From assembly GCA_964414295.1 (NCBI GenBank), contig CAYPVU010000046.1:2767-66766 (forward strand): a DNA stretch of 64,000 nt. The letters are read 5' to 3'. Shown here piece after piece: positions 8,511-59,960 of the stretch. Numbering within the stretch: the first letter of the stretch is position 1; each line of letters starts with the position of its first letter. This DNA comes from an uncultured Candidatus Saccharibacteria bacterium (lineage in GTDB: Bacteria; Patescibacteriota; Dojkabacteria; J137). The notes under the pieces were generated by a model. That model did not search any database, had not been told where the DNA came from, and saw nothing but the letters and a program-made list of their open reading frames with translations. The position numbers were made by a program, and so were the translations under genes.

Positions 8511-8537
8511 AGGGAGCTTAACTGCTCCCTCTTTTTA
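8511..8537. terminator. bidirectional rho-independent terminator between convergent operons
   Basis: AGGGAGC-TTAACT-GCTCCCT hairpin with an A-run upstream and a T-run (CTTTTTATTTTTT) downstream. It sits between the + gene ending at 8435 and the - gene ending at 8535. Confidence 0.5.
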
Positions 8538-25100: not shown

Positions 25101-25375
25101 TCAGCTCTAATTTCTTCTAATTCATCTTTAGAGAAATATGGAGATCTAAAGTCCATATCTCTAACATCTTCATTAGTAGCCCAAGATTTACCGTAACCAG
25201 CAGTTTCTGTAAAAATATTTGATCTGCTACCAGATTTGTAGTTTCCTCTTAATATATCATCAACTGTTAAAACAGGTGCTTGTCCTTGTAAATTAGTATT
25301 AGTAGAAGTAGATTTTTTATTTTTATCATCTCCTCCTGTATTACCAGTTAAAATATCATCTATTATAGCGCTCAT
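13151..25375 (-). CDS. giant multidomain virion protein (4074 aa): coiled-coil N-terminal third, HExxH zincin motif, crAss-like virion RNA polymerase DxDxD motif, C-terminal NADAR/YbiA-like domain
   Basis: Uninterrupted 12.2-kb ORF. VYHEAFHVVSQLF at about aa 1728. SDFDVDK at aa 3010-3014 (nt 16334..16348). NADAR-like ELSNFAVRPFTFKGVSFNSVEQAYQSLK...FEQNPKALQKLLATGKSELTHTQDKGKWGKEFPKLLMEVRQEL at aa ~3795-3927. Confidence 0.6.
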   Translation of the reverse strand: MSAIIDDILTGNTGGDDKNKKSTSTNTNLQGQAPVLTVDDILRGNYKSGSRSNIFTETAGYGKSWATNEDVRDMDFRSPYFSKDELEEIRAERFGIGESVAHGIGRLAGTTVTKAATSISDILIGIPSALIQQDASALFENPVSRAIMDIEESIKEALPIYNTKADQNKNFLHRALTDLDYWTDDLVDGAAFIASAYLTGYGASKLIGPATKSLYGKRLSDATRLSIGELGALEQAASMGDKAAIKVLNANSLQKTPLNKVTKELSEWTVGSVARSIESIAEGKQTYDEVYSDLLNQGYDDSTAKKKAAEAAMSTVGLNMLLLPLEKMQAASWFRRYNNSRKALLDVLEDGTIALPKKAVTKQIGKEFATQAFSEGIVEEGLQHAFQEYNKKKYLEPDYEDLGTISGVFKEYMNAFTTKEGWDAMGAGMILGGLFGASAKAIGEGGKAERKQLEDLKKLIDANQFKNDTFGKFITKDEKTGELKVDKNAIIKTIQEYAQSGKLQEAQELAAKAGSEELFNYFKDQQFNRWAFTHFEAGLGERLLNEIDSLKDLTNEQLAQQGIVLPEMKDSKGNVIDGKTISREYRQKALELEQLYNQLTDRFGGITPAVRNQIFNEALVQKSLKEGLEALNNKVSIKQAELEKDKNLFAEALSEAAEELSDELQGSPSKKDLEALEKERKAFIKELRKSYKRFDELTNPQTIEKKAKEAKKKEEEATKIVNEKETKAAKDETELKEFEAEYNTGDIVEVDIDGQILEGTVIQDASGNKFLEVHKPTGGVTRYAINELFKNKNKYKPRKLDEAALSLRNKANEDFIDAASRLATINELLSQLDRRIDSINRKITAKENEANKILEEISNITKDKKKIKNKFILEKIEKLNNIYYSIQSEISKLESEKNDLESKRPELASLNLVDLDGRAVQLEKLIEDTEKAISTAKESLSILKQIINKLKAALRGKYEYFKKLLDKVNSIKELDNLPVNSKENIALNEEITLRENEAAILENLIKEKERLLEQYKAELKPLAKYKKVLDKHKKRYSSLFKQSTNSVSRPGEISFNEQESNDTKDNSLDVAKTTHKLTRKAKPNLYSTAGLDVLYTGEYEDIFNEEGQLEFNTENDADKWFDYLRDPKNNTVDNNYFLRAEAQEDGTIKVFLYNGTEPVIVDGVHLYAFIHEPTYYDRVLASETRPGETEEEYNKRRVDDIQKFEDFRNKIKSSDKPVYLKVTGKSNGILNTIVTRNGQRARNNVEETFGVDDNLHKSLFVAQTTENNKTPHIVLPDGSIKNVRKSGALYYFIPNANGQVILGPEGTVAELVPNNISSKNADLIIDILKYISNISNGDLSNFRQNHIMIDGFKYYLVPSKQSENIQDKSYSIIGSLIYWGNNNQNPKTAIYFDYEANSLVFGENTITMDKIADEQNQKLLKDWLLENKLNNVSKKLLDQQRDNTSKHLEITNWEIKDKKLEIKNYNLYDSYAKYLTAHATPGSKSIAPQKRTPIFSTDVVGNVNNTGKRFLSVYFSYDSNNLYDQPIAKTTSTQKVTLTGTSLSNVLGNKSEPVSPTNNPTVNESVMSAFGDINQAVDITNIDIDIKEGMQEEVPVDNTGIVIDDASQAALEALNIQSASQPVISKTEVNSETTTGSALDINLTESGDIALPFNFRLKTDNNPYEKIDMEKEEAWFRERFPQIKFLKVSDLIEVAKYGQEAFGRFYVSAEKLGTVEVSEVAEVGTVYHEAFHVVSQLFLNDKQRLSLYNDYRKRHNKPNATDLEVEEALAEEFRDYVLSDGKLKFNKEEKTKKNFFQKIFDFFKHLILGKPLDADTLFNKINKGMYANATPITRNLNKLNTTNNNFFRVRIFNYTDDNNVTRKVSLTQEQVKTALDAMNIIFMNIYTKRGFSQKHLSKISDKGMLEVYYYPMLLDYIKEANSVADTKLYSLIIQNWNEFSKLHYDNLSEFGLSTFNEVEEYDEIKINDRNSGLDFKPSVEFSSKNGLPNTIKLLIRNLFEYKDASVFNDKGNLYTAIAKGEVKLVDFDKTWAILAETLNGITDMPSMINVLKNNVNQYPWMYQILDHLGVTEDLTIKDLDQARLLYDFVQAFSKTKNDYVKTIVDRDGNIYSIDAITEKLESKIRKEFLSGIKNSKYSIGTKEEKLKLYNSVKDNDKLFLDSLGIKLSNEETYKKAKGIVAELKAEVLKSINEDKQITEWFNYGDNISAGRFKQLINMEALNSVDEIELNFINSEGKSVYAVTLYNYLAQIINDLKNNKVLPQLDTANNKNIVHSTWLGQIKNNSKLQIVIRDGISAEEESKHHSKLSEKDIIISRIIDLLDNKIHTLLRPADKKLEYGLKGLKVFTKEDIQIDNNRVSVNPELQRQFFGYVLDELNRINSYDTLEGVEEFDKNGKEFLLFDWLSDKLKSDLITYKLPIIEGTKVYDELLDRFRGELFDYLTDYTNNRLLPKLQEFNVTSSDLSKNLQSYKINEIAAIFGVNELISAIEQTKLFFGDLAYFKDFYKRTPGIIATGKIPAIDSYINNLIYRDHFINVLPEQVSEYPTDGTMKVAVYKDVIITSLLTDEYKKYIDPAIVDETYAKLNEADAQGYITLPAFRDYMIRLGGYYWSDSHEAAYKKLMNNQTITKEEFALFSPIKPMHYGPDLNYKDSYVPFYLKLSLVPLLPTMIKGSKLENLNKSLMNNGVGIAVFESGNKVGTPSKVMLNDLYVNNDPNSDIKISNKGELYTNKIRLDYLRLQLDTNQEVKTNILYGTQLRKLLFSNLFGLGVDNNYQLIDFYNNKEVTATELFNEYSDIIDRLTEISKEKLLSELGVTKEEDIYTFNNTEKLLKLIKAEVRQRNLPENIIDGLDELYDKDNPSKLKASLDSLVVRNKIENLFQALVNNRIIKQKTKGTTLIQVASTGFETVGMKTDKEVGSRRLAFVRKNDKNGKEILQAEILVPNMWADKGVKTVEDLAKINPELLDVLGYRIPTQGLNSMVSFKIVGFLPAESGQSVVVPSEIVAQGGSDFDVDKLNIFINNHNFDNKPLSEEQILQNRLNQINHTVLRNSGPNDIIFKQLITPNGSTKLKQLYEEFYDDGSSKVKGSKLIEFPTILDTHVRNMEGKAGVGQSALHNTFHILSQIANLYVVPGFSYNFDFNKTQEGYPSLAGVYDNKGNTLISEMISEFLTAFVDNAKDPFISKMNINPMTTDLALYMISIGADYKFVIEFLNQPIIRDFVKESRINKGLTGKNNLSKNEVIKKIRDKYIKQLNKDSVKLYQYSLYDAKEPEVIKFVNTQYKKDRDNILGNNTFNFNNLRELRQLSEAENAKLQLQLLDDYLRLMEDSKLYTDAINATKDDTFGVGKDLPSAYNYIAKQEKAGIDPTVPIGRVLIPNLKEVYNATFMRGFKNNGAKFSIDLWGQLLLTGSPLYKKFLNEIKSFMNIEGDIQDEKLLDTITDSFLNYVYLVGLDETLVNQNLLKELFLGDNSVGKQILAIKRDPNHPLHNNLFINRYVIPLIKNKSSIDNVQFINKKFNKYTSDQITGSIQELFNTNPALGGKLIDLALFQSGIAESYLSYMKYLPADKMIPVLQRALNLFKEAYIKDQEGITRGFVVQFAKNNWKTVLSKFKLYNMVFNQELQEMIPLYNTNRVYKDGDRILGFSLKKSDYNKVYSNKKYIKMWNPDAKREFIYENMGKDSQDMPVFVIDNPLGNGANLQEWYKTKKKSIIDENNTGLTLEQRNFIADSLGRVNEYNMVKPTPISTIEINETNVEQDNVIEDELTSALLNPVELSVPAKEAPIDNLFDPSLPKINIYADTNENAELSNFAVRPFTFKGVSFNSVEQAYQSLKGGKFDKATYDNRAYIPFNRNGVMTVSKFRGPLGTTTDAQQTELMGQLIKASFEQNPKALQKLLATGKSELTHTQDKGKWGKEFPKLLMEVRQELKVTDNLDNYILKNQEFSIDHPNKETSTPIIDYKIDSKNNFNNIKINVISVNNNVTTAKITYNDGYTFTEDFNTEDFNKKMKMYGIKDKFNNLDNYINSLINSDKSIIFANLIQEVKDKLEAQDITESYFNMGTEEDKRVMLKCLKNNQ
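13595..13993 (-). other. NADAR (YbiA/DUF1768-like) domain segment of the giant ORF
   Basis: Aligns by eye with E. coli YbiA. GDFSNFAAWP..DG..W.TSEHYFQAQKF matches ELSNFAVRPFTFKGVSFNSVEQAYQSLKGGKF. FEQHAELRALLLAT...WGDGGHGKGKNRLGYLLMELREQL matches FEQNPKALQKLLATG...WGKEFPKLLMEVRQEL. Confidence 0.6.
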
Positions 25376-30714: not shown

Positions 30715-33700
30715 TTATCTAGAAGATATTCTAAATATAGTAGTTAGTAAATGGAATATTAATTTTTTATTATTGTTATTATTATAAGTAAATCTAGCTT
30801 TAATATACTTATCTCTTAATCTATCTAAAGTACTAGATCTAGGTATAAATAATTGCCAAGTTCTTTCTTTACGTTTAATAGTATTATTAGGAGTTAATGT
30901 TATTAAGTTAGACTGCTGATAATCAGTATTACATATAACAGTATTAAATGTTTCTTCTAATTGATTATTATTAGTATCTAATACTTCAGTAAGTAATTCA
31001 AAATTATCAAAAGTCTTAGTATAAATAGGTTTATCATTAGCAATAATATCTACAGTAGAATCATATATAGTACCATAATATTCACAATAATTGTCTTTAC
31101 CATGTATGTATAATTCATTAGGTATTGTAGGATTAGGTGTTATAATACGTTTACCATCATTTATATAAATAGTTGGTTTAAATGATAGGAAACTAATAAA
31201 AGCATCTAAAGACTCATCATAACTAATAGTGAACTTATTATTCACTTGTATTTTATTATTTAAATTTACTATTTCTGTTTCAACAGAAGGATATTCATTA
31301 TATTGTTTACCATCTAAATCTTTAAATGTATATAGTACTTCATTTCTAATTCTATTATAAGTACCTGTAATACCACTAAAATCTTGATGTATTGGGTTAT
31401 CTTCAAGTCTTATATTACCTTTTAATATATCTTGAAAGAATGAATGTAGACCTTTTATATCAGATACTGATTGATTTTGTCCATTAAATCTATAAAACTT
31501 ACGTTTTAATATATCTAACCAATACACAGAGTCATCAGTTTGTACTAAACTAAATTGATGTTTAGTACCAGTATCATTAGATATATATTTATGTGTTTGT
31601 ATTGTACTACCAGTACCTAATATTAAATCTGTTGTTCCTTGTATTAAAGCTGTAGGATTAATTAATATTTGTGAGAAAGCTCTATCTTGAAATACTAAAG
31701 CATTATCTCTAACTACTACTGCACCATTAATTGGACCATATACAGACTCTAAATCATAAAATCTATTAGTTTTCCATATAGTCCAACTATCTGTTAATTC
31801 TCCATTTATTTTCTCATTAGAAGCATAGATTCTACAATCATATTCTTGTTGATTAATAAACTCTAATGGTTTAGGTAAATATTTAACTATATCATTATCT
31901 ACAGAATATACTAACTGATATACAAAATCATCACCAAAGAAATGTGAATAAGAGTTGTTTGTTTCTTCAACAGAATTATAACCAACTCTGTTCATACTCA
32001 TTCCTGTTCCTACTCCTCCTTGTATAGCTCCATTATACCATCTAACATCAAAATTATAAGAAGATTCACAAGGAAAATACCATATTGCTCCTGCTCTAGA
32101 TATTACAGAGTCTGTAATATTTATACCATTTCCCCAACCTTTAAATAAAGCAAAATGATCAAAAACAGATACAAAAGTATCTCCTCCAAAACAAGTAACA
32201 GAAGTACTATTACCTAAATTAGCAGAACTAATAGGTATTAATCTGCTACAAGCTATATATTCATTTTGAGCTCTATTTTCATATCCTTTACCACCATATT
32301 GATTAGGATTAGGTCTATAGTAATGAACATAATAGTGTGCAGGAGAACCTGGAACATGTGGAAGAGTTTCACCATTATCTAGTACTAAAAATAAACAAGT
32401 ATTACCTGCAAATCTAACTTGATTTGGAGTATGTGCTAAACTACCATCTGTTGGTACATGTGTATTATAACATTGTGAACCATTAGATAATGTTACACTT
32501 TGTGTTAATACATCTGTGCTTGGAAAATGAGCTTGACTTATTTTACAATCCTGAATTTCAGAAAAAATACTATTAGAATAAAATTTAGGAGAACCTCCAT
32601 TAGAATAAAACTTATAAAAGAATACAGAATTTTCAGCTGGATAAGTACCTATAGAAGGCTCATATACAGTAGTATGATCTCTAGTTATATAACCTCCTAA
32701 GTATATTTTATCTCCTGTTTGAAATTTAAAAGTTTTATTAATAACTATTTCTGGAGATACTAATACAAAATGATCATCTGATATAACATTTGCTCTTAAA
32801 GGTTGGTGACTATCTTCATTAGCATCTAATAAATCAGGAGTCCCGTTTAATAAATCAGATCTATGTAAAGTACTATTACTAGTTTCTCTAAACATATGAT
32901 TCATTAAACCATTAAATAATATAGTTTTATCTGAATCAGTTCTTTTAACTCTAACTATAGAATATCCACTTATTTTATCTTCTATTAATGAAGTATTAAC
33001 TTGAAAATTTACACCCAAATTATATATAGTAGAATAATCAAAAGGGCTACTACTTGTTACAGCACATATTCTTTCATCAATAGGCATTTTAATATCACAT
33101 ATCCATTTAACAAAGTAAGGTTTACCTTCTTTATTAAAAAATTGAATACCAAATCTATAAGTTTCTCCTCTTTGAAAACCTTTTAATAATCCACTAGTAT
33201 AAGCACCATTAGCTTCAAAAGAGTTTTTATTTACATATTGTCTATTAGAAGAGTCTAAAGTATATGTATTATTAGTTCTTCCTTTATTTCTATATCCAGG
33301 AGCTACTATAGATTGTCTGGAATAATCTCTAAAAGGATTAACAATAATTTCATCATTAGTAGGATAATTAACAAAATTAAAAGATATATTAGGTCCTATA
33401 CCACCTACATTTCCAGAATTATCATAAATATAATCATCATCATTAGGAATTATACAGTCAGCTTTAGGATCTATTTGATTATTAGTAGGCACAGTATTAG
33501 TTATAGTAAATTCATTAGCTCCAGATATATTATTAATATCCATTACATAATTACCATTATCTAACTTATATCTAAAAGCTCTGGCATCATATTCAGGTAA
33601 ATCATCCATATCACTTCTAACATTAAGAGCAAATAGGATATTGTCTTTAGTTATAAGTTCTTTACAATGGGTAAAGCTATATTTTAAGTCTAATAGTTCA

Positions 33701-34893
33701 TCTAAACTAATAGTACCTAGATTTTCACTACCAGAATCAGTAAAAGTATAAGGACCTAAAGAAGGAGTATTTTCATCTTTAATTTTAGTAATTGTAGGAT
33801 TACTTGTGATAGTATCTCTATATATTCTATATACTTCTATTCTATTATAATCAGCATCTGGATAATTAATTATACCTCTAATAGACTTGGTGGTAGTTAC
33901 ACCAACACTACCTCTTATATCTGTTACCCAATTATCTAATTTATCATTACCTTCTAATATATAAATAGGATAACTTAAATCTGAAAATACTGTTTCTTGA
34001 CCTCCAGTAGTTCTTAAAAAATAAGCATATTGTACTATACCTGTTTTGTGAGAACCTCCTGATTGTAAAATATCTGTTAGTATAGGAGTATCTAAGTTAA
34101 CAGCAGATGATACACTTAAATTATCTATATCTACTAAAAATCCATTAGGATCAGCAGTATTAAACTTTCTTAATTTATTGTGAAAATCTGTAAAATAAAT
34201 ATTTTGAGTTTCTGGTATTTCATATCTTCCTATAACTCTTCTCATAGGATGATATTTAGTAAAACCACAAACATTGTTATATAATAATTCTAAATTAGTT
34301 ACAGCATCAGATTTATCATTATACTCTAATTTCCATATTTGACCTATACCATTAAAATCATTAGTATCATGATTAGTAGTTAATAATATTATAGTATCTC
34401 TAATAGTAGTCCAACCTATTACTTCTAAATCTGTTTGAACAGGTATTTTAACTGTAAATTGAAAATCTGCTGTGGCTGAATAAGTAATATTTACAAATTG
34501 ATTAACTGCTGTAAATACTAATCCTGTATTTTGATTATTAACCCAAACTTTAATTCCTAAATTTTGTAAAACAGTATCAGTATCAAATTCATCAGCTAGC
34601 TTTTTTAAAAATCCTTTTAATGTTAAACCATTTCTTAATACAGATTTATAAACACCATTAATAGTAAAACCACTTGCTCCAGTTATAGGAAAGTTACCAC
34701 CATTATATACAGCTTCTATAACAGAACTAGTATTAGGTATAGTTAAAGATAGTTCATTACCTTTATAATTAACTAAAGCTCCTTGATTTCTTCCTACACC
34801 AAAATTTAAAGCATCTTTATAAGTATTTTTATTTTGAATTAAATTAGAAGCATCTTTATTCATGCCTCCAACAAATGTATTAATACTTTCCAT
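30715..34893 (-). CDS. tail fibre / tail spike-like protein (1392 aa)
   Basis: Very large beta-rich protein with Asn/Thr/Tyr-rich composition, placed downstream of the lysis cassette in the late operon. Confidence 0.4.
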   Translation of the reverse strand: MESINTFVGGMNKDASNLIQNKNTYKDALNFGVGRNQGALVNYKGNELSLTIPNTSSVIEAVYNGGNFPITGASGFTINGVYKSVLRNGLTLKGFLKKLADEFDTDTVLQNLGIKVWVNNQNTGLVFTAVNQFVNITYSATADFQFTVKIPVQTDLEVIGWTTIRDTIILLTTNHDTNDFNGIGQIWKLEYNDKSDAVTNLELLYNNVCGFTKYHPMRRVIGRYEIPETQNIYFTDFHNKLRKFNTADPNGFLVDIDNLSVSSAVNLDTPILTDILQSGGSHKTGIVQYAYFLRTTGGQETVFSDLSYPIYILEGNDKLDNWVTDIRGSVGVTTTKSIRGIINYPDADYNRIEVYRIYRDTITSNPTITKIKDENTPSLGPYTFTDSGSENLGTISLDELLDLKYSFTHCKELITKDNILFALNVRSDMDDLPEYDARAFRYKLDNGNYVMDINNISGANEFTITNTVPTNNQIDPKADCIIPNDDDYIYDNSGNVGGIGPNISFNFVNYPTNDEIIVNPFRDYSRQSIVAPGYRNKGRTNNTYTLDSSNRQYVNKNSFEANGAYTSGLLKGFQRGETYRFGIQFFNKEGKPYFVKWICDIKMPIDERICAVTSSSPFDYSTIYNLGVNFQVNTSLIEDKISGYSIVRVKRTDSDKTILFNGLMNHMFRETSNSTLHRSDLLNGTPDLLDANEDSHQPLRANVISDDHFVLVSPEIVINKTFKFQTGDKIYLGGYITRDHTTVYEPSIGTYPAENSVFFYKFYSNGGSPKFYSNSIFSEIQDCKISQAHFPSTDVLTQSVTLSNGSQCYNTHVPTDGSLAHTPNQVRFAGNTCLFLVLDNGETLPHVPGSPAHYYVHYYRPNPNQYGGKGYENRAQNEYIACSRLIPISSANLGNSTSVTCFGGDTFVSVFDHFALFKGWGNGINITDSVISRAGAIWYFPCESSYNFDVRWYNGAIQGGVGTGMSMNRVGYNSVEETNNSYSHFFGDDFVYQLVYSVDNDIVKYLPKPLEFINQQEYDCRIYASNEKINGELTDSWTIWKTNRFYDLESVYGPINGAVVVRDNALVFQDRAFSQILINPTALIQGTTDLILGTGSTIQTHKYISNDTGTKHQFSLVQTDDSVYWLDILKRKFYRFNGQNQSVSDIKGLHSFFQDILKGNIRLEDNPIHQDFSGITGTYNRIRNEVLYTFKDLDGKQYNEYPSVETEIVNLNNKIQVNNKFTISYDESLDAFISFLSFKPTIYINDGKRIITPNPTIPNELYIHGKDNYCEYYGTIYDSTVDIIANDKPIYTKTFDNFELLTEVLDTNNNQLEETFNTVICNTDYQQSNLITLTPNNTIKRKERTWQLFIPRSSTLDRLRDKYIKARFTYNNNNNKKLIFHLLTTIFRISSR

Positions 34894-51044: not shown

Positions 51045-53479
51045 TATTTTTTAGGTTTAGGTTTATTTTTAGCAATTTGTTTTTTAGCTTCTATTTCTTT
51101 TTCTTTAATTTCTTTTTGTGTTTTTATCTTTTCTCTTTCAAGATTAGCTCTATCTCTATCAATCATATCTTGATTCATAGATTGTTGTTGTTCAAAAGCA
51201 AATCTTCTTTCTTCTAAAGATAATTTAGCTAACTCAACAGGATCAGGGATACCGTTACCATCAGTATCCAATTCAGATTGTCTATTAAACGCAGCTATTT
51301 CAGCAACTTGTATTTTAGTTTGTCTATCAGCTTCTTTGTTCCAATCATCTCTATCCATTTTTTCTCTTTCAAAAGCTATCATATCTTGCTGCATTTGAGC
51401 TTGAGCTTGTTGCTGCTGTTGTTGTTGAGCTTGCATTTCTTGTTGTCTTCTCTGTTCAGCTTGAATGAGTTTATTTTTAATATCAGCCAAAGACTCACTA
51501 TTAAATATAGATATAATATCAGATAATGCAATTTGGTCATTCTGCATTGCTGCATGTGATAATTGTTTTAAAGTTTCTATTGCTTGATGATCTTTAGAAG
51601 AATTAGTTAAGAATACTCCATATTCAGCATCGTTAAATAATTCACCATCTACAGAAAAAAATACAGTAGCTAAATCATCTGTTATATATTGGAATTTTTT
51701 AGTTTTACCTTCAGATATAATATACTTAGCTGTTTCAACTAAAGTTTCTACAACTCTCTTTTTAACATCATTATGTATAGTAAACCATTTTTCTGTAATA
51801 TGAGCAGATTGTACAACAGCTCTTTCAACATTACCTACTAACTCACTAGAAGATACTGCTCCCATACGCTGTGGAGTTACTCCACTAACATTATATAATT
51901 TCTGTTCTACAAATTCTAATAAGCTAATATATCCTTGTATTTGATTTCCAGTTTCTAAATTTAATTCTCCAGATTGACCAGACATATTACCAGCTAATTT
52001 ACCAGTAGCAGCTCCTTTTTTACCTTCTTTAAAACTATCTACAAAAGCAAATTTCATTGATGTAGCATAGTATAACCACTTATCTATTTCCCAACCTTCA
52101 GGTATCATAGCTAAATCTACTTTAGCTATTTTTCCTTGATTAGCAGCTAGTAATAATTCTGTTCTATACCAAATAACTACATAAAGATATATCCAAGGGA
52201 TTAGTCTATCCATTAAAGAAATAGATTGACTATTATTAGCATTATATATTGTTCCTACATATCCAGATTTACAAATAGATATATTATCCATTCTTCTAAA
52301 CTGAACAGGTCTAGGACGCATATTCACATAAATATCAGTACCTATTTTAGTACCTTCCCAATATTCATTTATCCATAACCATTCTATAGAAGAATCTGGA
52401 TCTTCTTTATCATGTTTATAAAGTTCATCTACAAGTAATTCCTGTTGTTCACCATTTTCATCTAAAAATGTAAGTTTACCAACTTTACGTCTAGACTTCC
52501 AAACTACTTTACAAACTCTTACATTATTAGCTTCGTCAAAATTAGCTTGAGCAGCTTTACCAGATAGTACATCTTCTTCTCTTTGTATAAATAATTTATA
52601 AGGTTCAGTATAACCTAATAGTTGTTTATTAAGAGCATTTTTATTACCATTCCATTCTTCTAATAAATCTATATCAGATTTAGATAAACTATCATAAAAA
52701 GTATCTATTACTTGTCCTATAGACATCCAAGTTTCTTCTACAATGATATCTGAATCATCTATATTATCAGAATTAGGATTTAATGTGCAATATATTTCAG
52801 TAGGATTAACTCTTCTTACAGAAGGTTCATCAGCTACTATATCAACACAATAAATTTCTTCACCAGCTATTAAAGAATCTTCCCAACCCTTTAAAAATAA
52901 CATATCTAAATTAAGATATCTTCTAAAATATTGAACTATTTTAGTAGCTATAGATTCTCTCATATCTTGATATTCATATGAGATATATTTTTGTAATTCT
53001 TCTGGTGTAGGAGGAGGATTTTCTGGATCAACACTTTCAGGATCAATATGAGCCATTAGCATTTGTTCCAACATTTGTATTATTAACTCTTTTTGCTTTT
53101 TTTCTTTATCAGAAATAACATCTTCATTAATAGCTCTTATAATAAAATTAAAAGGTCTTTTAGCTTCTTCTCCAAATAATAAATTAAATATTGGAGATAC
53201 AATATCGTAGTATTGTAGATTAGCAGGTAATTCTAAATTATCTAAACCTAGAGGATTACATACATACTCTAAATCTGTTTTATCTAAAATACCATTGTAT
53301 AAAGCATAGTTTCTTAACTTTCTCCATTTAGGAGAACGTCTAGTATTATCATATAACCCTACTATACCAAGACCTGAATCAACACAAGCTTTAGCCCATT
53401 CTTCATTTTTTTCTCTTCTTGATAACTTTTGTCTAGGGAAATTATTTTGATGTTCCATTTTATTAGCTAATAAAAACAA
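51044..53479 (-). CDS. portal protein candidate (about 805 aa) with a poly-Q / lysine-rich C-terminal tail
   Basis: Sits directly downstream of TerL and is of crAss-like portal size. The true start is probably the ATG at 53458 (MEHQNN...); the track start at 53479 is a TTG. C-terminal QQQQQQQAQAQMQQ...KPKPKK. Confidence 0.45.
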   Translation of the reverse strand: MFLLANKMEHQNNFPRQKLSRREKNEEWAKACVDSGLGIVGLYDNTRRSPKWRKLRNYALYNGILDKTDLEYVCNPLGLDNLELPANLQYYDIVSPIFNLLFGEEAKRPFNFIIRAINEDVISDKEKKQKELIIQMLEQMLMAHIDPESVDPENPPPTPEELQKYISYEYQDMRESIATKIVQYFRRYLNLDMLFLKGWEDSLIAGEEIYCVDIVADEPSVRRVNPTEIYCTLNPNSDNIDDSDIIVEETWMSIGQVIDTFYDSLSKSDIDLLEEWNGNKNALNKQLLGYTEPYKLFIQREEDVLSGKAAQANFDEANNVRVCKVVWKSRRKVGKLTFLDENGEQQELLVDELYKHDKEDPDSSIEWLWINEYWEGTKIGTDIYVNMRPRPVQFRRMDNISICKSGYVGTIYNANNSQSISLMDRLIPWIYLYVVIWYRTELLLAANQGKIAKVDLAMIPEGWEIDKWLYYATSMKFAFVDSFKEGKKGAATGKLAGNMSGQSGELNLETGNQIQGYISLLEFVEQKLYNVSGVTPQRMGAVSSSELVGNVERAVVQSAHITEKWFTIHNDVKKRVVETLVETAKYIISEGKTKKFQYITDDLATVFFSVDGELFNDAEYGVFLTNSSKDHQAIETLKQLSHAAMQNDQIALSDIISIFNSESLADIKNKLIQAEQRRQQEMQAQQQQQQQAQAQMQQDMIAFEREKMDRDDWNKEADRQTKIQVAEIAAFNRQSELDTDGNGIPDPVELAKLSLEERRFAFEQQQSMNQDMIDRDRANLEREKIKTQKEIKEKEIEAKKQIAKNKPKPKK

Positions 53480-53484
53480 ATATA
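53474..53484 (-). promoter_or_regulatory. TATATTTGTTT promoter-like -7 element upstream of the portal ATG
   Basis: Plus-strand AAACAAATATA lies 19-26 nt upstream of the ATG at 53458. Confidence 0.3.
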
Positions 53485-53541
53485 CAATAAAAATACAAGA
53501 TAATTACTATTATTTGTTAGTTGTTTTTAATTTTTTTAAAC

Positions 53542-56500
53542 TTACCATAGCTTATTTTTACGTTTTGTAAATAGTTTTCTATTCCAAAAATCAGAATTTA
53601 ATATATCATTTTTATCATTAGCTTCTTCTATTTTAACTTTCTTTACTTCTTGTATATGATACATACACATCATTAGACTCATAACTCTATCAAAGTTACC
53701 TTCTGGATTATAGGCAATTAACTCTTTTAATAGAGGAATACATCTTATTTTATGCATATTTTTAATACCATTAGATGAATCATAGTCTTCTAATAACCAC
53801 ATAATTATTAGATCCTCACCATGATCTTTTAATGATTTATTCATATGCATACCTTTACCTCTTTCTACTTTAGAGTTTTGTATAACATCTTTAATATAAG
53901 CAGGTTGATCTAAAAGTAAATAAGTTTCATTCTTACCTTCTAAATATTGGAATAGACCTTTTTTCTCATTTTCATATAAACATCTAGCATTATAAAAATG
54001 AAGTAATCTTCTTAAAATTTCATAATACTCATTTGCTGTTTTAGGTCTAGCTGTATATTCAGCAACTATTCTATTTGTTATTTTATCTATAATTATAGTA
54101 GAACCTAAAGAAGTTGTGCCAGATTGATCATGATCATAAGGGTCAGTACCTGCTAAATATCTACCAAAAGGTACATTTCCTTCCTCATCTTCATAAGGCA
54201 TCTCATATATAACCACACATCCTTCAGAATCTTGATCTTTAGTTAAAGGAAATTCTTTTAAAGGATTTAAATTAGGATTAGGCTTCCATTCATATTTAAG
54301 TGAATTAGGATTAAATACAATATCTCCTATATAATTAGTATTTTGTATTCTTTCTGATCCTTCTACTTGAGATAATATTATTTGTAAATCAGCTAAAGGA
54401 AATCTATTACCACTAGTTCTTAAAAATGCTTCAGCTGGAGATAAAGGTTGCTGAGTTATTTCTTTTTCATAAGCTCTCTTATTACCAGATTTTTTAACTA
54501 TTTCTCTTTTTAGTAGCAAAGATTCTTTTGCTTTAGCTCTATCAGAGTTACCATCTTTATCTACATAAGGAGGCTTATACCAAGAATCATCTACAAACCA
54601 TCCACAAGAACCTATTGCATTTTCATCCCATATATTTTCATAAGCTCTTAATCCATAAGAAGAAGGATTATAAAACATATCTGCAAAATCTTGTGTACCA
54701 CCTTCCATATCTCCACCTGTTCCATAAATAATAGGAATACCTATCATTATTTCTCCATCTGAGAATAATGGTTTAGATAACATATAAGATTCTATAAGTC
54801 CAGTCCACTTTCCTGCTTCTTCAAATAACATTACAGAAGCAGATTTACCAATTGATTTAAAAGGGTTATCTTTAAAACTCATAGTCATTATTTCAGACTT
54901 GAATCCAGATTCTACTTCTATACCATTTATTTTTTCTTTAAATCCTGATTTAATATATTGTCTAGTATCTATTAACTTTCTTTTAGCCCAATCAGTATTA
55001 GTGTTAATAAAGTTAATCATGTCTAAAGCCATATTCATTGTAGTTTGTGAATACTCCGCTAAAAAAGCTGCTATAATAGAAAATGAATTTCTATACCAAT
55101 TATATTCATAAACCGTATTAAATGCTCCTTTATATGAGTTATGAGTAACTATATAATCTCTAGTTATATATAAATGATTTGGGTTTTCTACTAAAATGCA
55201 AGAACTTTCTTCTTGATAATCTAATTTTTTAACAGAAGTAATAGCTACTTTATTATGATTATATTTTCTTTTTTTAATATTTTTATTTTTTCTATCTAGT
55301 TTAAATATTTCATAATCTGTTATTATATTAACTACCCAAGAATCTCTAACAATAGATTGCTTATTATTTGGAAAATTCATTAGTTTTCTACCATTACTAC
55401 TTTTAGATTTAGTAGCTCTTAATCCAAGACTTCTACAAATATCAACTACATCATTAGCTAATGTTTCAGAAGAAGAAGTAAATCTACATGTTCCATTTGG
55501 ACTACTAGTACCATCAGTATCCATTAATCCTTTTAATAACTCTAATCTTGTATCATAAGAACCTTTCTTATAAATTTCAGGAATAAACTTATCATAAGAT
55601 TTTACATTTAATTTTAAATTTTGTATAAATCTTAATAAATTATTAGGAGTACCAGGACCACCATCTTTTACAGTAATACTATATTTAAAAGGAGTGGTTG
55701 TTTTATTAACATTGTATCTAGATTTTAATATATCTTTTACAATATTAACTAGTTGTTCATCGTTTGATGAAAACTCTAAACTTGATTTTGTTAGACTTCC
55801 ATCTCCTATTAAAACACCTAGTAAATAAGGATCTATTGGTAAAGGTAAATCATAGAAATTTAAAGGTTTACAATTTTCTATAAAGTAAGCATAGTAACAT
55901 TTATTACCTTTATTTCTTTTTAATTTCTTATCTAAAAAGAATTTAGTATTTACTATTCTTTTTTTACCTCTTTGATCAATAATTTCCCAAAGATGTTCTA
56001 ATCCGCATTTTACTTTTCTACCATCTCTTAATTCTAACTCATATACATCCTTCTTTCCTTGAGGATATACTTCAAGGATTCTTGTAGGATAACCGTCAGG
56101 ATTCATTACTAAATCATTAGGTTTTAATGTACCCATTGGTTTGAATCCAAATGGAGTTAAAACAAGTTCACTATTAGGTTGTTCAAATCCTTTTCTCCTT
56201 GATTTAGCTACTATTATACCTTCTTTATTTAATTTAGCTTTCTCTAATTCATGATAATAATAGTAATCCATATCTAGAAAACGAGGAAATCCTTCGTACT
56301 TTCTAGCTTTTTTACCTTCTCCTTCAGTTATTTTAATTCTACCAAAGTTAAGATAAGCATAATGTTCTCCAGTTATTCTAATACCACCTACAGTATAACC
56401 TTCTCTACATCTTCTATCTTGTTCATCCCAATACTCTTGATATTCATATGTTCCTTCAGGAGCATCACAATAAGTATTATATTTAACAAACCTTTTAGCT

Positions 56501-56583
56501 TCTTCACAAAAATAATCAGTATTTATGAAAGTAGTAGGGTTTGTTAAATAAGGTATATCATGTATAAGTATATCGTTACTCAT
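53542..56583 (-). CDS. terL: terminase large subunit interrupted by an intein (1013-aa precursor)
   Basis: Candidate P-loop remnant AKSRRKGF sits at the N-extein/intein junction. Nuclease-domain motif LAGTDPYDHDQSGTTSLGSTIIIDK (RuvC-like G.DP....D). Gene order TerL-portal. Confidence 0.65.
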   Translation of the reverse strand: MSNDILIHDIPYLTNPTTFINTDYFCEEAKRFVKYNTYCDAPEGTYEYQEYWDEQDRRCREGYTVGGIRITGEHYAYLNFGRIKITEGEGKKARKYEGFPRFLDMDYYYYHELEKAKLNKEGIIVAKSRRKGFEQPNSELVLTPFGFKPMGTLKPNDLVMNPDGYPTRILEVYPQGKKDVYELELRDGRKVKCGLEHLWEIIDQRGKKRIVNTKFFLDKKLKRNKGNKCYYAYFIENCKPLNFYDLPLPIDPYLLGVLIGDGSLTKSSLEFSSNDEQLVNIVKDILKSRYNVNKTTTPFKYSITVKDGGPGTPNNLLRFIQNLKLNVKSYDKFIPEIYKKGSYDTRLELLKGLMDTDGTSSPNGTCRFTSSSETLANDVVDICRSLGLRATKSKSSNGRKLMNFPNNKQSIVRDSWVVNIITDYEIFKLDRKNKNIKKRKYNHNKVAITSVKKLDYQEESSCILVENPNHLYITRDYIVTHNSYKGAFNTVYEYNWYRNSFSIIAAFLAEYSQTTMNMALDMINFINTNTDWAKRKLIDTRQYIKSGFKEKINGIEVESGFKSEIMTMSFKDNPFKSIGKSASVMLFEEAGKWTGLIESYMLSKPLFSDGEIMIGIPIIYGTGGDMEGGTQDFADMFYNPSSYGLRAYENIWDENAIGSCGWFVDDSWYKPPYVDKDGNSDRAKAKESLLLKREIVKKSGNKRAYEKEITQQPLSPAEAFLRTSGNRFPLADLQIILSQVEGSERIQNTNYIGDIVFNPNSLKYEWKPNPNLNPLKEFPLTKDQDSEGCVVIYEMPYEDEEGNVPFGRYLAGTDPYDHDQSGTTSLGSTIIIDKITNRIVAEYTARPKTANEYYEILRRLLHFYNARCLYENEKKGLFQYLEGKNETYLLLDQPAYIKDVIQNSKVERGKGMHMNKSLKDHGEDLIIMWLLEDYDSSNGIKNMHKIRCIPLLKELIAYNPEGNFDRVMSLMMCMYHIQEVKKVKIEEANDKNDILNSDFWNRKLFTKRKNKLW
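55138..56172 (-). mobile_element. intein with LAGLIDADG homing endonuclease domain inside terL (about 345 aa)
   Basis: Two LAGLIDADG blocks (YLLGVLIGDGSL and LLKGLMDTDGTS). C-terminal splice motif ...YIVTHN|SYKG (His-Asn followed by Ser). The N-terminal junction is near ...EQPN|SELVLTPFG. Confidence 0.6.
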
Positions 56584-56584
56584 A

Positions 56585-57091
56585 TTATCTTTCTCTATCT
56601 TTTACAGATCCTCCGCCTCTAACTCTATTTTCAGCAGCTTGTTCTTTCTTAACTCTTTCTTCTAATTTATCTAAGGACTCTATAATCTTACCTAGTTTTT
56701 CTAAATTAGCTGTATAAGATCTATCTTCAGGAGAAGATCTTTTAAAATAGTTAGATAATTTTTCAACAGCAAGTTTTGCTGAGTTTAACATTCTTAGTGT
56801 AGGAGTTTCTTGTAAAGCATAATACTTTTTAGCAGCATCAGAAATTAAATTATCAGGTTTCCATTTAGAATCTTTTATAAAATCTTCTATTATTTTAGAT
56901 TCTCTTATATCTTCAGGATAAGCTTGATAAGCAGATTTAAAATCAACTAGCATATAAATATAAGTTAGTTCTTTAAATGCTTGTTCTTTATCTTTAGATT
57001 TATCTCTATCCCAAATTGCTTTAAATTCAGGTATAACTAATTTATCAGGATCTATTACTACTTTATTACTTTTAAAATTAAATATACTCAT
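56585..57091 (-). CDS. putative terminase small subunit
   Basis: 168-aa helical protein immediately upstream of terL. Assignment is by position only. Confidence 0.3.
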   Translation of the reverse strand: MSIFNFKSNKVVIDPDKLVIPEFKAIWDRDKSKDKEQAFKELTYIYMLVDFKSAYQAYPEDIRESKIIEDFIKDSKWKPDNLISDAAKKYYALQETPTLRMLNSAKLAVEKLSNYFKRSSPEDRSYTANLEKLGKIIESLDKLEERVKKEQAAENRVRGGGSVKDRER

Positions 57092-57092
57092 A

Positions 57093-57308
57093 CTACACAG
57101 TAATACTATCTATCATTTTAACTAACTTCTCAATTACTATCTTACGATTATCAGCTTCTAGTATAGGTTTTCTAATAACTCCTACAAAATGTTTTTTACC
57201 AATTTCTTCAGGATTACTTTCAAATTGTGGTTCATCAATCATCATTGCTAAAGCTTTAACTACAGCCTCTATCTCTTGTGCTTTATTACTTTCCATACTT
57301 AAATCCAT
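57093..57308 (-). CDS. hypothetical small protein
   Basis: 71-aa ORF. Confidence 0.3.
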   Translation of the reverse strand: MDLSMESNKAQEIEAVVKALAMMIDEPQFESNPEEIGKKHFVGVIRKPILEADNRKIVIEKLVKMIDSITV

Positions 57309-57561
57309 TTATTTTTATATCTAATTTTAATTTACTTAACTTATTATAGTTTCCTAAAACTACTTTATATCCCTCATCTCTATGATAAACTATACATCTA
57401 TTTTTATGTATTTTTCCTTTGGAATTATAACTTTCAGTTATAGATCTAATATCATCAAGATCTACTAACCACCTAGTAGTTAAATTGAGTTTAACTATTT
57501 TAGGATTCTCAGGATCATTGTTGTATAGATTACCTATAACTCTAAATTCATGTTGAGACAT
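57286..57561 (-). CDS. hypothetical small protein
   Basis: 91-aa ORF. Confidence 0.3.
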   Translation of the reverse strand: MSQHEFRVIGNLYNNDPENPKIVKLNLTTRWLVDLDDIRSITESYNSKGKIHKNRCIVYHRDEGYKVVLGNYNKLSKLKLDIKINGFKYGK

Positions 57562-57562
57562 A

Positions 57563-57763
57563 TTACCATTTATTTAAAGGACATTTTTTATCAATACTTC
57601 TTATAGCAGCTATAATAGGACATCCACAAGCAGTACATATACCTAATTTATTCTTAGGGCATTTAGAACATTCTTTAGCTCTATTAAGAGCTAGTTCTTC
57701 TGATTCTTTAGTTGGGAATATTATATTCTTCCAACCATCTATAATATTACTTATCTCTTCCAA
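57563..57763 (-). CDS. Cys-rich zinc-ribbon small protein
   Basis: CSKCPKNKLGICTACGCPIIAAIRSIDKKCP: CxxC ... CxxC ... C spacing. Confidence 0.35.
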   Translation of the reverse strand: MEEISNIIDGWKNIIFPTKESEELALNRAKECSKCPKNKLGICTACGCPIIAAIRSIDKKCPLNKW

Positions 57764-57953
57764 GTTCTATATCTCTAAGTTTCTTTCTATTTTTCTTAAC
57801 TCCAAATATACCTAAATGTATTGCTCTAAAAGATTCATATTTTCCAGATTCCATAGCAAGCTTAATCATCTTATATTGAGAGTTAATAACTCTTTCTACA
57901 TCACTCTTAGGAATATTTAATCTAAGAGATACTTCTCTAATCACTTTATCCAT
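57747..57953 (-). CDS. HU/IHF-like small DNA-binding protein (tentative)
   Basis: 68 aa; the layout DKVIREVSLRLNIPKSDVERVINSQYKMIKLAMESGKYESFRAIHLGIFGVKKNRKK resembles the HU helix-helix-beta-arm pattern. Confidence 0.3.
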   Translation of the reverse strand: MDKVIREVSLRLNIPKSDVERVINSQYKMIKLAMESGKYESFRAIHLGIFGVKKNRKKLRDIELGRDK

Positions 57954-58315
57954 TATTTCTCAAGTTTAAGTTTATAAGTAATATTTAAAACATTATCCTT
58001 TTCATCAGGATACTTTAAAAGATGTTTAACTATTTTATTATCATTAGTTAATATTCTTTTACTTCTAAGACTAGTAAGATGATTATTAAAAGAAGGTTCA
58101 CTCATTTTAATAGACATATACATTGCTTTTCTTGCACTAGCAGAAAAGATAAGATTAAATAACTTATCTTCATCTAGGTGTCTATTTGCATAACATAGAG
58201 TAAGAATAGTACTTAGTACTTCTACTTCTCTTTTCTTTAAATTTAAAATAGGATTTAAAGCATTTACATATGCTTTATAAAACTTTTTAATATCTACATT
58301 AACAGGTATTATCAT
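57953..58315 (-). CDS. hypothetical protein (first gene of the leftward late operon)
   Basis: 120-aa ORF whose start abuts the ORF-free island. Confidence 0.3.
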   Translation of the reverse strand: MIIPVNVDIKKFYKAYVNALNPILNLKKREVEVLSTILTLCYANRHLDEDKLFNLIFSASARKAMYMSIKMSEPSFNNHLTSLRSKRILTNDNKIVKHLLKYPDEKDNVLNITYKLKLEK

Positions 58316-58860
58316 ATCTAATCTACACTATTATAATCTACTTCTCTTCAGTTAATACCTAAAAAAGGGTAATAATCTTACGGGACTACTACCCTTAGTG
58401 TTAGTTTCATTTTAAACTGTAGTATACTAAATACTTTTGTTTATAAGAGGATTTACTAACCTAGTATCTTAATATATATTTTAGAGCATAGCATTGGCTG
58501 ACTCCATTTTAAAGTAACTAATCCTACCTATCTCTACTTCTAACTATCTAATTACTTCCCATAACTACATAGCAAAGTTTACCCCTAGTTAAGGATCTTA
58601 CTTAATACTTTTGGATTTCCTTAGTTTAATTTGCGTCTGGCTTTCGCTGTACCTACTGGGGTAGTTTTACCTACTATTGTTTCCCCACTATTAAACTTTG
58701 TTCATCCAAGGATCTATCTCTCTATTTGAGAGGAGTACTTATCTCCTTTGTTAGACCTCTAACCTAACCCTTGCTAAAGATTAGTCCCCTTAAAGGTGAA
58801 TAACAATGCAAAGATAAAACAAATATCTGACATTTCCAAATAATTTAGCAATTATTTTTA
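58316..58860. other. GC-richer ~550-bp ORF-free island, pyrimidine-rich on + strand, at the left edge of the gap between the leftward late operon and the rightward + genes (the rest of the gap, 58861..59020, is AT-rich); candidate structured ncRNA or origin
   Basis: No ORF >=60 aa in any frame. Composition is clearly less AT-rich than the flanks. Local hairpins are present, e.g. GGGTA-18nt-TACCC and GGGG/CCCC pairs; TACCTACT occurs twice. Confidence 0.35.
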
Positions 58861-59020
58861 TAAGTTTTTTATAACTATCTGAAAATCAATAAAAAATTTT
58901 TTTATAAAATTTTAAAAATGTAAGTATAAATTTAAACGAGGACCACCCCATTTCCTAACCCCCTCTCAGGCTTGGGCAGGGAAAATCCCTCGCCACTAAT
59001 AACCTAAAAACCATTTTTTT

Positions 59021-59311
59021 ATGAACAAGCAACAATTTATTGCTGCATTAAACGCAGCAGGCGTAGAATTAAAGCAGAGAGTATTTGAAGATACTGTTAT
59101 TGCTAAAACTATTAATTTATTAACTCTTGGATTTGTTAGAAGAGTAAGTAGTACTGGTAAAGCGCAGTACATTCTAACAGAAGATAATAAGGAGTTAATA
59201 ATTAATGTTACTCAGTTCAGAGATAATGATACTTACAAAATCATTAAAAGAACTGCTACAATAGAATACAAATCCATGAAACCAGGACAGTATTTTATTA
59301 TAGGATTATAA
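59021..59311 (+). CDS. hypothetical protein
   Basis: 96-aa ORF preceded by a GC-rich leader and followed by a clean terminator. Confidence 0.35.
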   Translation: MNKQQFIAALNAAGVELKQRVFEDTVIAKTINLLTLGFVRRVSSTGKAQYILTEDNKELIINVTQFRDNDTYKIIKRTATIEYKSMKPGQYFIIGL

Positions 59312-59316
59312 AGATT

Positions 59317-59340
59317 AGAGCCCTAACGGGCTCTTTTCTT
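59317..59340 (+). terminator. rho-independent terminator AGAGCCC-TAAC-GGGCTCT + TTTCTTT
   Basis: Perfect 7-bp GC-rich stem with a tetraloop and a T-run, 6 nt after the stop. Confidence 0.6.
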
Positions 59341-59510
59341 TCGTCTATTTAAGTTATTTAGATATTTATTTAATACATCTATTTAATTATTTAGATATGT
59401 ATTTAATTGAGTATTAAAGACTTAGGATTTAGATTTAATATTTAGATTTAGGTCTTTATACACCTAACCAAACAAATAACCATATTTACAATTATCTATA
59501 TTTACAATAC
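59341..59510. repeat. iteron-like direct repeats (TTATTTAGATAT x2, ATTTAGATTTA x2, TATTTAAT x3, ATATTTACAAT x2)
   Basis: Seen directly: 59355-59366 and 59388-59399; 59427-59437 and 59440-59450; 59483-59493 and 59498-59509. Confidence 0.45.
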
Positions 59511-59559
59511 TAATGTAAATTATATAGCTTATATTATTATGTTAACTATAATTAATGGT

Positions 59560-59960
59560 TGTCTTACTTATATTGAGTGGACAACTAATCCTAATGGCTA
59601 ATTAGGATTGCTATAGGTTTATACTTGTACCTGGCAGAAATAAAAACAAGTATTTAATTTAATGCACCACAACTCACTTCCCAAGGGTGAGCAGTTGTAA
59701 TATTCATCTCGGCTCCTATAAATAATAAGTTATTAGAGATGATTACTGTGCACAAGTAGAAGACCTAAATCAGATAGTCCTCGAAGATTATCATGAAGGA
59801 GTGGCTCTATTACAACTGAGTGCAGAGAGAATACTCTCATCCAAACAGGTATATTACCAATCTATAAGAAGCAGGTGTAACAGTAAGGTTACTGTCTTAT
59901 AAGGAGATATATATCAAGGTTTGCAACCTTGTGAGAGTCAAATTATCTTTAATATTAACT
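59560..59960. other. hairpin-dense non-coding stretch (candidate structured RNA / leader)
   Basis: Several perfect stems within 400 nt: GTTGTC-16nt-GACAAC, CCTAAT-GGCTA-ATTAGG, CAACTCAC...GTGAGcAGTTG, GAGAG-AATA-CTCTC, CAGTAA-GG-TTACTG, CAAGGTT-TGCA-AACCTTG. No ORF. Confidence 0.3.

Follow-up and report, generated by a model that had tools for sequence, protein, structure and literature searches.

Class 3 inteins are defined by a non-nucleophilic first residue, by co-varying Trp, Cys and Thr residues at block positions B:12, F:4 and G:5 (the WCT triplet) and by Ser or Thr at position +1, and most of them occupy the ATPase P-loops of helicase-like proteins, including phage terminase large subunits (TerL) (Tori et al. 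2010, PMC2807308). Their splicing pathway has been established for the inteins of mycobacteriophage Bethlehem DnaB (MP-Be DnaB), Dra Snf2 and Msm DnaBi1. The mycobacteriophage TerL1-a and TerL1-b inteins lie in the Walker A site right before the nucleophilic Ser/Thr, contain a LAGLIDADG endonuclease and have intein-free partner phages (Kelley et al. 2016, PMC5050341), and crAss-like phages of the Delta group "typically" carry a TerL intein (Yutin et al. 2021, PMC7886860). Here we describe a TerL gene in a 64,000-nt stretch of DNA (positions 2,767 to 66,766 of contig CAYPVU010000046.1; hereafter, the window). There is good support for the view that a mobile intein with a homing endonuclease splits this DNA-packaging motor gene of a crAss-like phage within its ATP-binding loop. 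More specifically, the element is very probably a mobile class 3 intein of 349 amino acids (aa), E134–N482, with an in-frame double-motif LAGLIDADG endonuclease, inserted in the Walker A P-loop at KSRRKGF|S. Since the three studies cited above already describe both TerL P-loop inteins of class 3 and inteins in the TerL of crAss-like phages, it is an ordinary further example of such elements.

The window intein resembles the class 3 prototypes, the Bethlehem DnaB intein and Msm DnaBi1 (PDB 6BS8), in its non-nucleophilic residue 1, its WCT triplet, the Ser/Thr at +1, its location in an ATPase P-loop and its phage context. Residue 1, however, is Glu rather than the Pro of the MP-Be DnaB intein (PMC2807308), the solved class 3 inteins have low sequence identity to it, a match being detected over the ~60-aa N-terminal part alone (E = 1.7e-5 to 6BS8 in the PDB), and the LAGLIDADG domain is retained intact, whereas Msm DnaBi1 is a mini-intein without an endonuclease. 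With the mycobacteriophage TerL1-a/b inteins it shares the Walker A site of TerL, the LAGLIDADG domain and the existence of intein-free partners, but the host TerL belongs to a very different, crAss-type family and residue -1 is Phe (KSRRKGFS) instead of the canonical Lys.

Insert boundaries and the class 3 signature

The boundaries of the insert were fixed by comparison with an allele that lacks it. Using the hypothetical spliced TerL sequence as the query of a homologue search, we recovered an intein-free protein of 664 aa (P0001) that is 99% identical to the query and reads AKSRRKGF|SYKGAF, as well as a 1,013-aa protein (P0002) identical to the window precursor. The contig encoding the intein-free protein (L001, from Logan SRR28842991) aligns to window positions 58484..56185 at 98.5% DNA identity and to 55137..51057 at 99.1%, with nothing aligned between 56185 and 55137. 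Because these flanks abut without aligned sequence between them, the insert is delimited to the nucleotide (Table 1), and the boundary is unambiguous because the residues flanking each junction differ. The breakpoint sits at KGF|SYK, and the insertion is in frame, absent from orthologues and flanked by collinear sequence. A family hidden Markov model of the intein matched the window at 3.7e-119 in a single copy, and no second copy was found with it within the window.

A preliminary description of this locus, made from the sequence alone, had proposed an intein with a LAGLIDADG endonuclease interrupting the ATPase region of TerL. That central claim is borne out by collinear intein-free homologues, one of them 99% identical, and by the intein and endonuclease folds described below; the 1,013-aa open reading frame (ORF) on the minus strand was also placed exactly. 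The insertion had been put at aa ~138–482 (~345 aa), of which the C-terminal end stands, whereas the N-terminal boundary lies four residues further towards the N terminus. The spliced protein, estimated there at ~668 aa, is exactly 664 aa according to the breakpoints of the intein-free allele, and the assignment of the exteins to TerL was upheld by PHROG 6681. The alignment proposed in that description, of the spliced sequence to intein-free TerL homologues, is collinear across the junction after removal of aa 134–482.

As fixed by the empty-allele breakpoint, residue 1 of the intein is Glu134, which is neither Cys, Ser nor Thr. Block B reads G-L-E-H197-L-W199, block F reads S-C462-I-L-V-E and block G reads T480-H-N|S483, revealing the WCT triplet (W199/C462/T480), the THN|S C-terminal junction already noticed in the preliminary description (aa 480–483) and Ser483 at +1. 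Judged by sequence, the insert thus has every feature by which class 3 is defined. These features are also conserved in an alignment of 108 full-length intein relatives (30–45% identical): H197 (B:10), C462 (F:4) and T480 (G:5) are present in 108/108, and W199 (B:12), H481 and N482 in 107/108 each, while the +1 residue is Thr in 92 and Ser in 15. Residue 1 is Ala in 78 relatives and Glu in 20, with two each of Gln, Asp, Ser and Gly. The alignment to 6BS8 is in register, its HQW, RCVEV and PTHN falling on the HxW, the F:4 Cys and the THN of the insert.

A class 1 intein was rejected on the basis of Glu at residue 1, Gly194 rather than Thr at B:7 and Cys462 rather than Asp at F:4, and a class 2 (KlbA-like) intein because the WCT triplet is present. 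The preliminary description had implied a standard intein, missing the class 3 signature (Glu1, Trp199, Cys462, Thr480 and Ser+1), and it would have dismissed the intein if block A/B residues were absent at the N-terminal junction. The block A nucleophile and the B:7 Thr are indeed absent, yet the intein stands; such a criterion would wrongly reject it because a class 3 intein uses the block F cysteine. This intein will likewise escape motif scanners that demand a Cys or Ser as the first residue, or be given wrong boundaries by them.

Two further cysteines in the family were observed. One relative (P0201) has Cys at position 1 yet contains the WCT triplet. In the window intein, Cys193 (block B:6; window 56005..56007) lies four residues before His197 and is conserved in 88/108 relatives, and a Cys at B:6 also occurs in the class 1 intein gp41-1. 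In Msm DnaBi1, the block F Cys is joined in a regulatory disulfide to a non-catalytic Cys whose position differs from that of Cys193.

The insertion point falls inside the Walker A loop. The 36 TerL homologues compared all have K127, R129, R130 and G132, and F133 and S134 (spliced numbering) are conserved in at least 90% of them. In the model of the spliced protein, aa 122–127 (GIIVAK) form a strand, 128–132 (SRRKG) a loop and 133–147 (FSYKGAF...) a helix, which is the Walker A topology. The preliminary description had called AKSRRKGF a P-loop-like remnant; it does adjoin the insert, and the site is in the ATPase P-loop, but rather than a remnant it is 7/8 of a conserved deviant Walker A motif split by the intein, with Ser483 completing it. 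KSRRKGFS may be equivalent to KSARVGYS, the deviant motif of lambda gpA. The intein relatives sit after a canonical GxxGxGK and before Thr or Ser, with Lys (89), Arg (12) or Phe (5) at -1, in PhoH, AAA, RecA, DnaB, UvrD-like and TerL proteins. The site of the window intein is therefore the classic P-loop one, although the Walker A there is deviant and has Phe at -1. More than 100 related class 3 inteins (P0201, P0125–P0240) were observed at Walker A GK|T/S sites, mostly in environmental metagenomes, and their hosts include AAA_24-like proteins.

The host protein was identified as TerL from PHROGs and a fold search. PHROG 6681 (terminase large subunit) matched the ORF at 7.7e-128 in two segments that leave out the insert, the main segment spanning aa 483–993, while aa ~107–491 only were matched by PHROGs of other intein-bearing proteins (other TerLs, DnaB/DnaC-like proteins, a primase and a helicase). 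A model of the spliced protein built from 36 homologues, with a predicted local distance difference test (pLDDT) score of 87.1, matched T4 gp17 (1.8e-13), the TerLs of Sf6 (gp2), HK97, P74-26 and D6E and the G20c nuclease domain. It comprises an N-terminal ASCE ATPase and a C-terminal RNase H-like nuclease, and the gene is flanked by an 811-aa portal-like ORF on one side and a 168-aa ORF on the other. We relied on these two lines of evidence because a single-sequence search of the spliced TerL against the PDB gave 0 matches, a 36-sequence profile gave spurious repeat-protein matches only, and a Pfam search of the extein gave no match, with no Pfam terminase among its results.

Endonuclease domain, mobility and recombination footprint

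To examine the fold of the insert, we built an AlphaFold2 model with extein stubs of seven and five residues from a 63-sequence alignment (pLDDT 92.6; predicted template modeling score, 0.91). Foldseek against the PDB returned PI-SceI as the best match (E = 3e-20, TM 0.69), followed by the Tli and Pho VMA inteins, PI-PfuI and PI-PkoII, and a match to I-DmoI was limited to the central domain. PI-SceI (yeast VMA1) and the archaeal VMA and PI-PfuI inteins, the best whole-structure matches, likewise combine HINT and double-LAGLIDADG domains, PI-SceI and the VMA inteins being inserted in an ATPase, but they are class 1 (Cys1), only 13–15% identical to the window intein, larger and equipped with an extra DNA-recognition region. 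By sequence, the closest solved structure for the N-terminal HINT half (~60 aa) is gp41-1 (1.5e-10), a cyanophage-like DnaB-helicase intein (6QAZ/6RIZ) that is natively split, class 1 and mini, with Phe at B:12 and Asp at F:4, unlike the window intein; the best match, 6RIZ, is an engineered C1A/F65W/D107C variant mimicking class 3. The gp41-1 and PI-SceI matches, like that of PHROG 6681, are far beyond chance. The insert thus has the HINT fold, with blocks A, B, F and G, a C-terminal H481-N482 and then Ser483.

Both LAGLIDADG blocks proposed in the preliminary description are present, the first (PYLLGVLIGDGS) at aa 252–263 and the second (ELLKGLMDTDGT) at aa 348–359. Pfam detected LAGLIDADG_3 (8.6e-12) and Hom_end at aa 345–399 and a WhiA-type LAGLIDADG at aa 253–304. 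Each motif contains its catalytic Asp, conserved in 101/108 (D261) and 108/108 (D357) relatives, and together with the I-DmoI and PI-SceI fold matches this corresponds to a monomeric two-motif LAGLIDADG endonuclease. That this endonuclease would cut the intein-free allele site-specifically is suggested indirectly by the existence of empty alleles and by the recombination footprint at the site.

The distribution of the insert among homologues is sporadic, as expected of a mobile element: among the best 120 TerL homologues, only 4 are long proteins and only 2 (P0002 and P0034) have an insert at this site. P0023 contains a different, Cys1 intein at IIYG|C...THN|TGGDM, and P0120 another Cys1 intein at YIAG|C...THN|CDPYD. 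The intein-plus gene was found in at least four independent samples, and intein-free alleles were found at 99% (L001) and about 90% identity (L009, JGI 3300044959). Intein and extein relationships are also incongruent: the closest intein, in a gut-type crAss TerL fragment that also carries it in the P-loop (P0121), is 45% identical with an N-extein at 36%, while P0034 has an extein at 58.5% and an intein at 41%.

Across the crAss-type TerL family we observed at least three independent intein sites, namely the KGF|S P-loop (class 3), IIYG|C...THN|TGGDM (class 1) and YIAG|C...THN|CDPYD (class 1, in the nuclease domain). The last is also occupied in the GenBank phage cr118_1 (L003, MT774379, 1474–4644), whose 1,056-aa TerL gene is annotated only as "terminase". 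The cr118_1 intein is found in the same phage order and the same gene and likewise combines HINT and LAGLIDADG domains, but it is class 1 (Cys1, Cys+1) and lies in the nuclease domain, leaving the P-loop KSRRKGYS intact. The P-loop class 3 element in the window is therefore a different insertion.

Divergence from the intein-free allele L001 is concentrated around the insertion site. Within a tract of 503 nt upstream and 195 nt downstream of the insertion, 32 of 698 nt (4.6%) are mismatched, compared with 39 of 5,673 nt (0.7%) elsewhere (Fisher p = 2.3e-13). Mismatches begin close to the junction, at 4, 10, 12, 13, 16, 28, 43, 58, 67, 79 and 112 nt upstream (and on to 503 nt) and at 6, 24, 51, 105, 109, 135, 181 and 195 nt downstream, and those nearest the junction are synonymous. 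A third intein-plus allele (L010) has the window states within approximately codons 107–150 and the L001 states outside; because it shares the window states only there, the core of the tract is linked to the intein across three intein-plus alleles. We read the tract as a gene-conversion footprint centered on the insertion site, which would fit gain by homing and loss by recombination with an empty allele alike. Target-site escape in L001 is a third possibility for the substitutions at the junction.

Several further observations concern these alleles. In L001 (3978–4037), five synonymous changes (ATT, TCT, CGT with two, and GGT) lie within 28 nt upstream of the insertion (window 56185..56214 and 55108..55137), and they differ both from the intein-plus flanks and from the intein-free outgroup L009; such changes might render the homing site resistant to the endonuclease. 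A scan of IMG/VR for closer TerL alleles found only intein-free relatives of at most 64% identity, which are of no use for polarizing the flank substitutions. Another allele (L011, Logan SRR12997673, 501–3542) has two nucleotide differences from the window gene, both non-synonymous and both in the endonuclease domain: D357N, at the second catalytic Asp (window codon 55513..55515), and T365I. The D357N change may mark the onset of endonuclease decay in the homing cycle, or it may be a sequencing error. GC content is 0.252 in the intein versus 0.288 in the N-extein and 0.279 in the C-extein, and at third codon positions 0.083 versus 0.105 and 0.12, a gap too small to say anything about foreign origin.

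Competing explanations and a proposed pathway

Some points weigh against the interpretation of the element as an active, mobile class 3 intein. Glu at position 1 is a minority state in the family (20/108), and we could not confirm from the literature a Glu1 class 3 intein demonstrated to splice. Polarization with the outgroup L009 splits the derived states between both alleles, L001 showing them at ATT, TCT, CGT and GGT a short way upstream of the site, the window at AGG, TAT and ACG. Finally, splicing and DNA cleavage by this particular protein are predictions.

The unusual first residue, and the fact that splicing is deduced, also give a small chance to the view that the insert is a decayed, non-splicing relic, tolerated as a permanent domain or marking a TerL pseudogene in a defective phage, and the D357N allele would suit the onset of such decay. 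However, the family-invariant splicing residues are all intact (H197, W199, C462, T480, H481, N482 and S483), the ORF is uninterrupted and recurs with its intein across the independent samples, and among intein-plus alleles the intein of L010 shows four synonymous and two non-synonymous codon changes. A non-splicing version should moreover be lethal, as the Walker A of an essential ATPase would be split (in line with Kelley et al. 2016, PMC5050341). Slighter still is the chance of a class 1 intein whose nucleophile lies inside the insert, for example Ser138 in EQPN|SELVLTP, such that splicing would leave EQPN in TerL. Ser138 does stand directly before the block A-like ELVLTP strand, and the best PDB sequence match, gp41-1, is natively class 1; yet the gp41-1 register places position 1 on E134, where the insert starts exactly, EQPN is absent from the intein-free allele and would break the invariant Walker A, column 138 is variable in the family (Asp 33, Ser 32, Tyr 21), and the WCT triplet, the class 3 hallmark, is essentially invariant.

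We give next to no credence to a native, lineage-specific TerL domain, for which nothing speaks beyond its presence in a continuous ORF, given a TerL that is 99% identical without it, its absence from 116 of the best 120 TerL homologues and its nearest relatives in unrelated P-loop proteins. The same negligible probability applies to the idea that a group I/II intron, or a homing endonuclease gene standing on its own, was mistaken for part of the ORF. Introns can encode LAGLIDADG endonucleases too, and introns abound in crAss-like phages (Yutin et al. 2021, PMC7886860), but the 1,047 nt are in frame without stops, HINT blocks lie on both sides of the endonuclease, and no Rfam family, group I/II introns included, matched in window 53000..57200.

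For the favored class 3 intein, the splicing chemistry would follow, by analogy, the pathway of the MP-Be DnaB, Dra Snf2 and Msm DnaBi1 inteins. The precursor would be unable to bind ATP, its loop being split by a ~40 kDa domain. Because residue 1 is Glu, splicing could not start by the usual N-S/N-O acyl shift. Instead, Cys462 (F:4), activated by the variant block B residues His197 and Trp199, would attack the F133–E134 peptide bond to form a block F thioester branched intermediate; the N-extein would then be transferred to the hydroxyl of Ser483 (+1), Asn482 would cyclize to release the intein, and an O-N acyl shift would restore KSRRKGFS and an active 664-aa TerL. Because the intein splits the P-loop, the precursor is probably inactive as an ATPase and splicing obligatory for packaging, in line with Kelley et al. 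(2016, PMC5050341). During co-infection, the endonuclease would cut intein-free TerL alleles at the KGF|SYK codons, and repair would copy the intein plus flanking sequence into the cut allele.

A wider reading would combine three ideas, and taken jointly we consider it unlikely. The intein would belong to a large, essentially uncharacterized class 3 clade with an (A/E)QP N terminus that hops between unrelated P-loop NTPase genes (PhoH, RecA, DnaB, AAA, UvrD-like and TerL) by recognizing the Walker A coding sequence, Cys462 and Cys193 would form a redox switch, and L001 would reflect an arms race over the homing site. If so, the hopping clade would reside in environmental and crAss-like phages; the switch, as shown for Msm DnaBi1, would let oxidative stress restrain DNA packaging post-translationally; and the clustered synonymous changes of L001 would represent selection for endonuclease-resistant targets in a continuing contest between intein and phage.

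The gene should be annotated as encoding a TerL precursor that contains a 349-aa class 3 intein, and TerL phylogenies of Crassvirales should take the spliced 664-aa sequence. The metagenomic allele set comprises an intein-plus allele, a 99%-identical intein-free allele, an intein-free allele whose target is possibly altered and a variant in which a catalytic residue of the endonuclease is mutated; homing, co-conversion and the life cycle of inteins in crAss-like phages could conveniently be studied with it. The locus also adds a Glu1 example for class 3 splicing chemistry, without overturning current understanding.

Feature coordinates and phage context

Table 1 Features of the TerL precursor gene and its surroundings, in window positions
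Feature	Position	Strand	Basis or remark
TerL precursor ORF (N-extein, intein and C-extein, stop codon included)	53542..56583	-	1,013 aa
N-extein, aa 1–133, C-terminal end GIIVAKSRRKGF	56185..56583	-	L001 alignment reaches window 56185
N-terminal 7/8 of deviant Walker A loop, AKSRRKGF, aa 126–133; completing conserved Ser is S483 (+1)	56185..56208	-	conservation; spliced model
Intein, aa E134–N482, 349 aa, 1,047 nt	55138..56184	-	breakpoints versus intein-free L001; family hidden Markov model; fold
HINT N-terminal part (blocks A, B), aa 134–245; H197 (B:10), W199 (B:12; codon 55987..55989)	55849..56184	-	gp41-1 and 6BS8 matches; conservation
LAGLIDADG homing endonuclease domain, aa 246–440	55264..55848	-	Pfam; conservation; PI-SceI, PI-PfuI and I-DmoI fold matches
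LAGLIDADG motif 1 (catalytic D261)	55795..55830	-	
LAGLIDADG motif 2 (catalytic D357)	55507..55542	-	
HINT C-terminal part (blocks F, G), aa 441–482; C462 (F:4; codon 55198..55200), T480 (G:5), H481, N482	55138..55263	-	conservation; 6BS8 alignment
C-extein, aa 483–1013, begins S483 (+1 nucleophile) YKGAF	53542..55137	-	L001 alignment
Tract of raised divergence versus intein-free L001, intein inside, 503 nt upstream and 195 nt downstream of insertion	54943..56687	-	

We also compared the gene and its surroundings with known phages. By tblastn, TerL falls among Crassvirales and the Flavobacterium and Cellulophaga crAss-like phages, at ~40% identity, and a megablast comparison of the gene with 50,697 phage records gave no match; the phage is without a close sequenced relative. 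Judging by the tblastn matches, it presumably infects Bacteroidota-type hosts, not Actinobacteria. Over a length of at least 9 kb, the window and an 86-kb Logan contig are identical. Identity to L001 falls from ~99% to 90–94% at window 58803..59702, upstream of the packaging module, where indels and an unaligned gap (59029..59311) also occur; the phage genomes, nearly identical otherwise, vary in this region. Giant ORFs of 4,074, 1,539 and 1,392 aa were observed downstream of the structural module, at 8535..25375 (-) and 30715..34893 (-), and we take them for the giant proteins usual in crAss-like phages (virion RNA polymerase or tail-associated).

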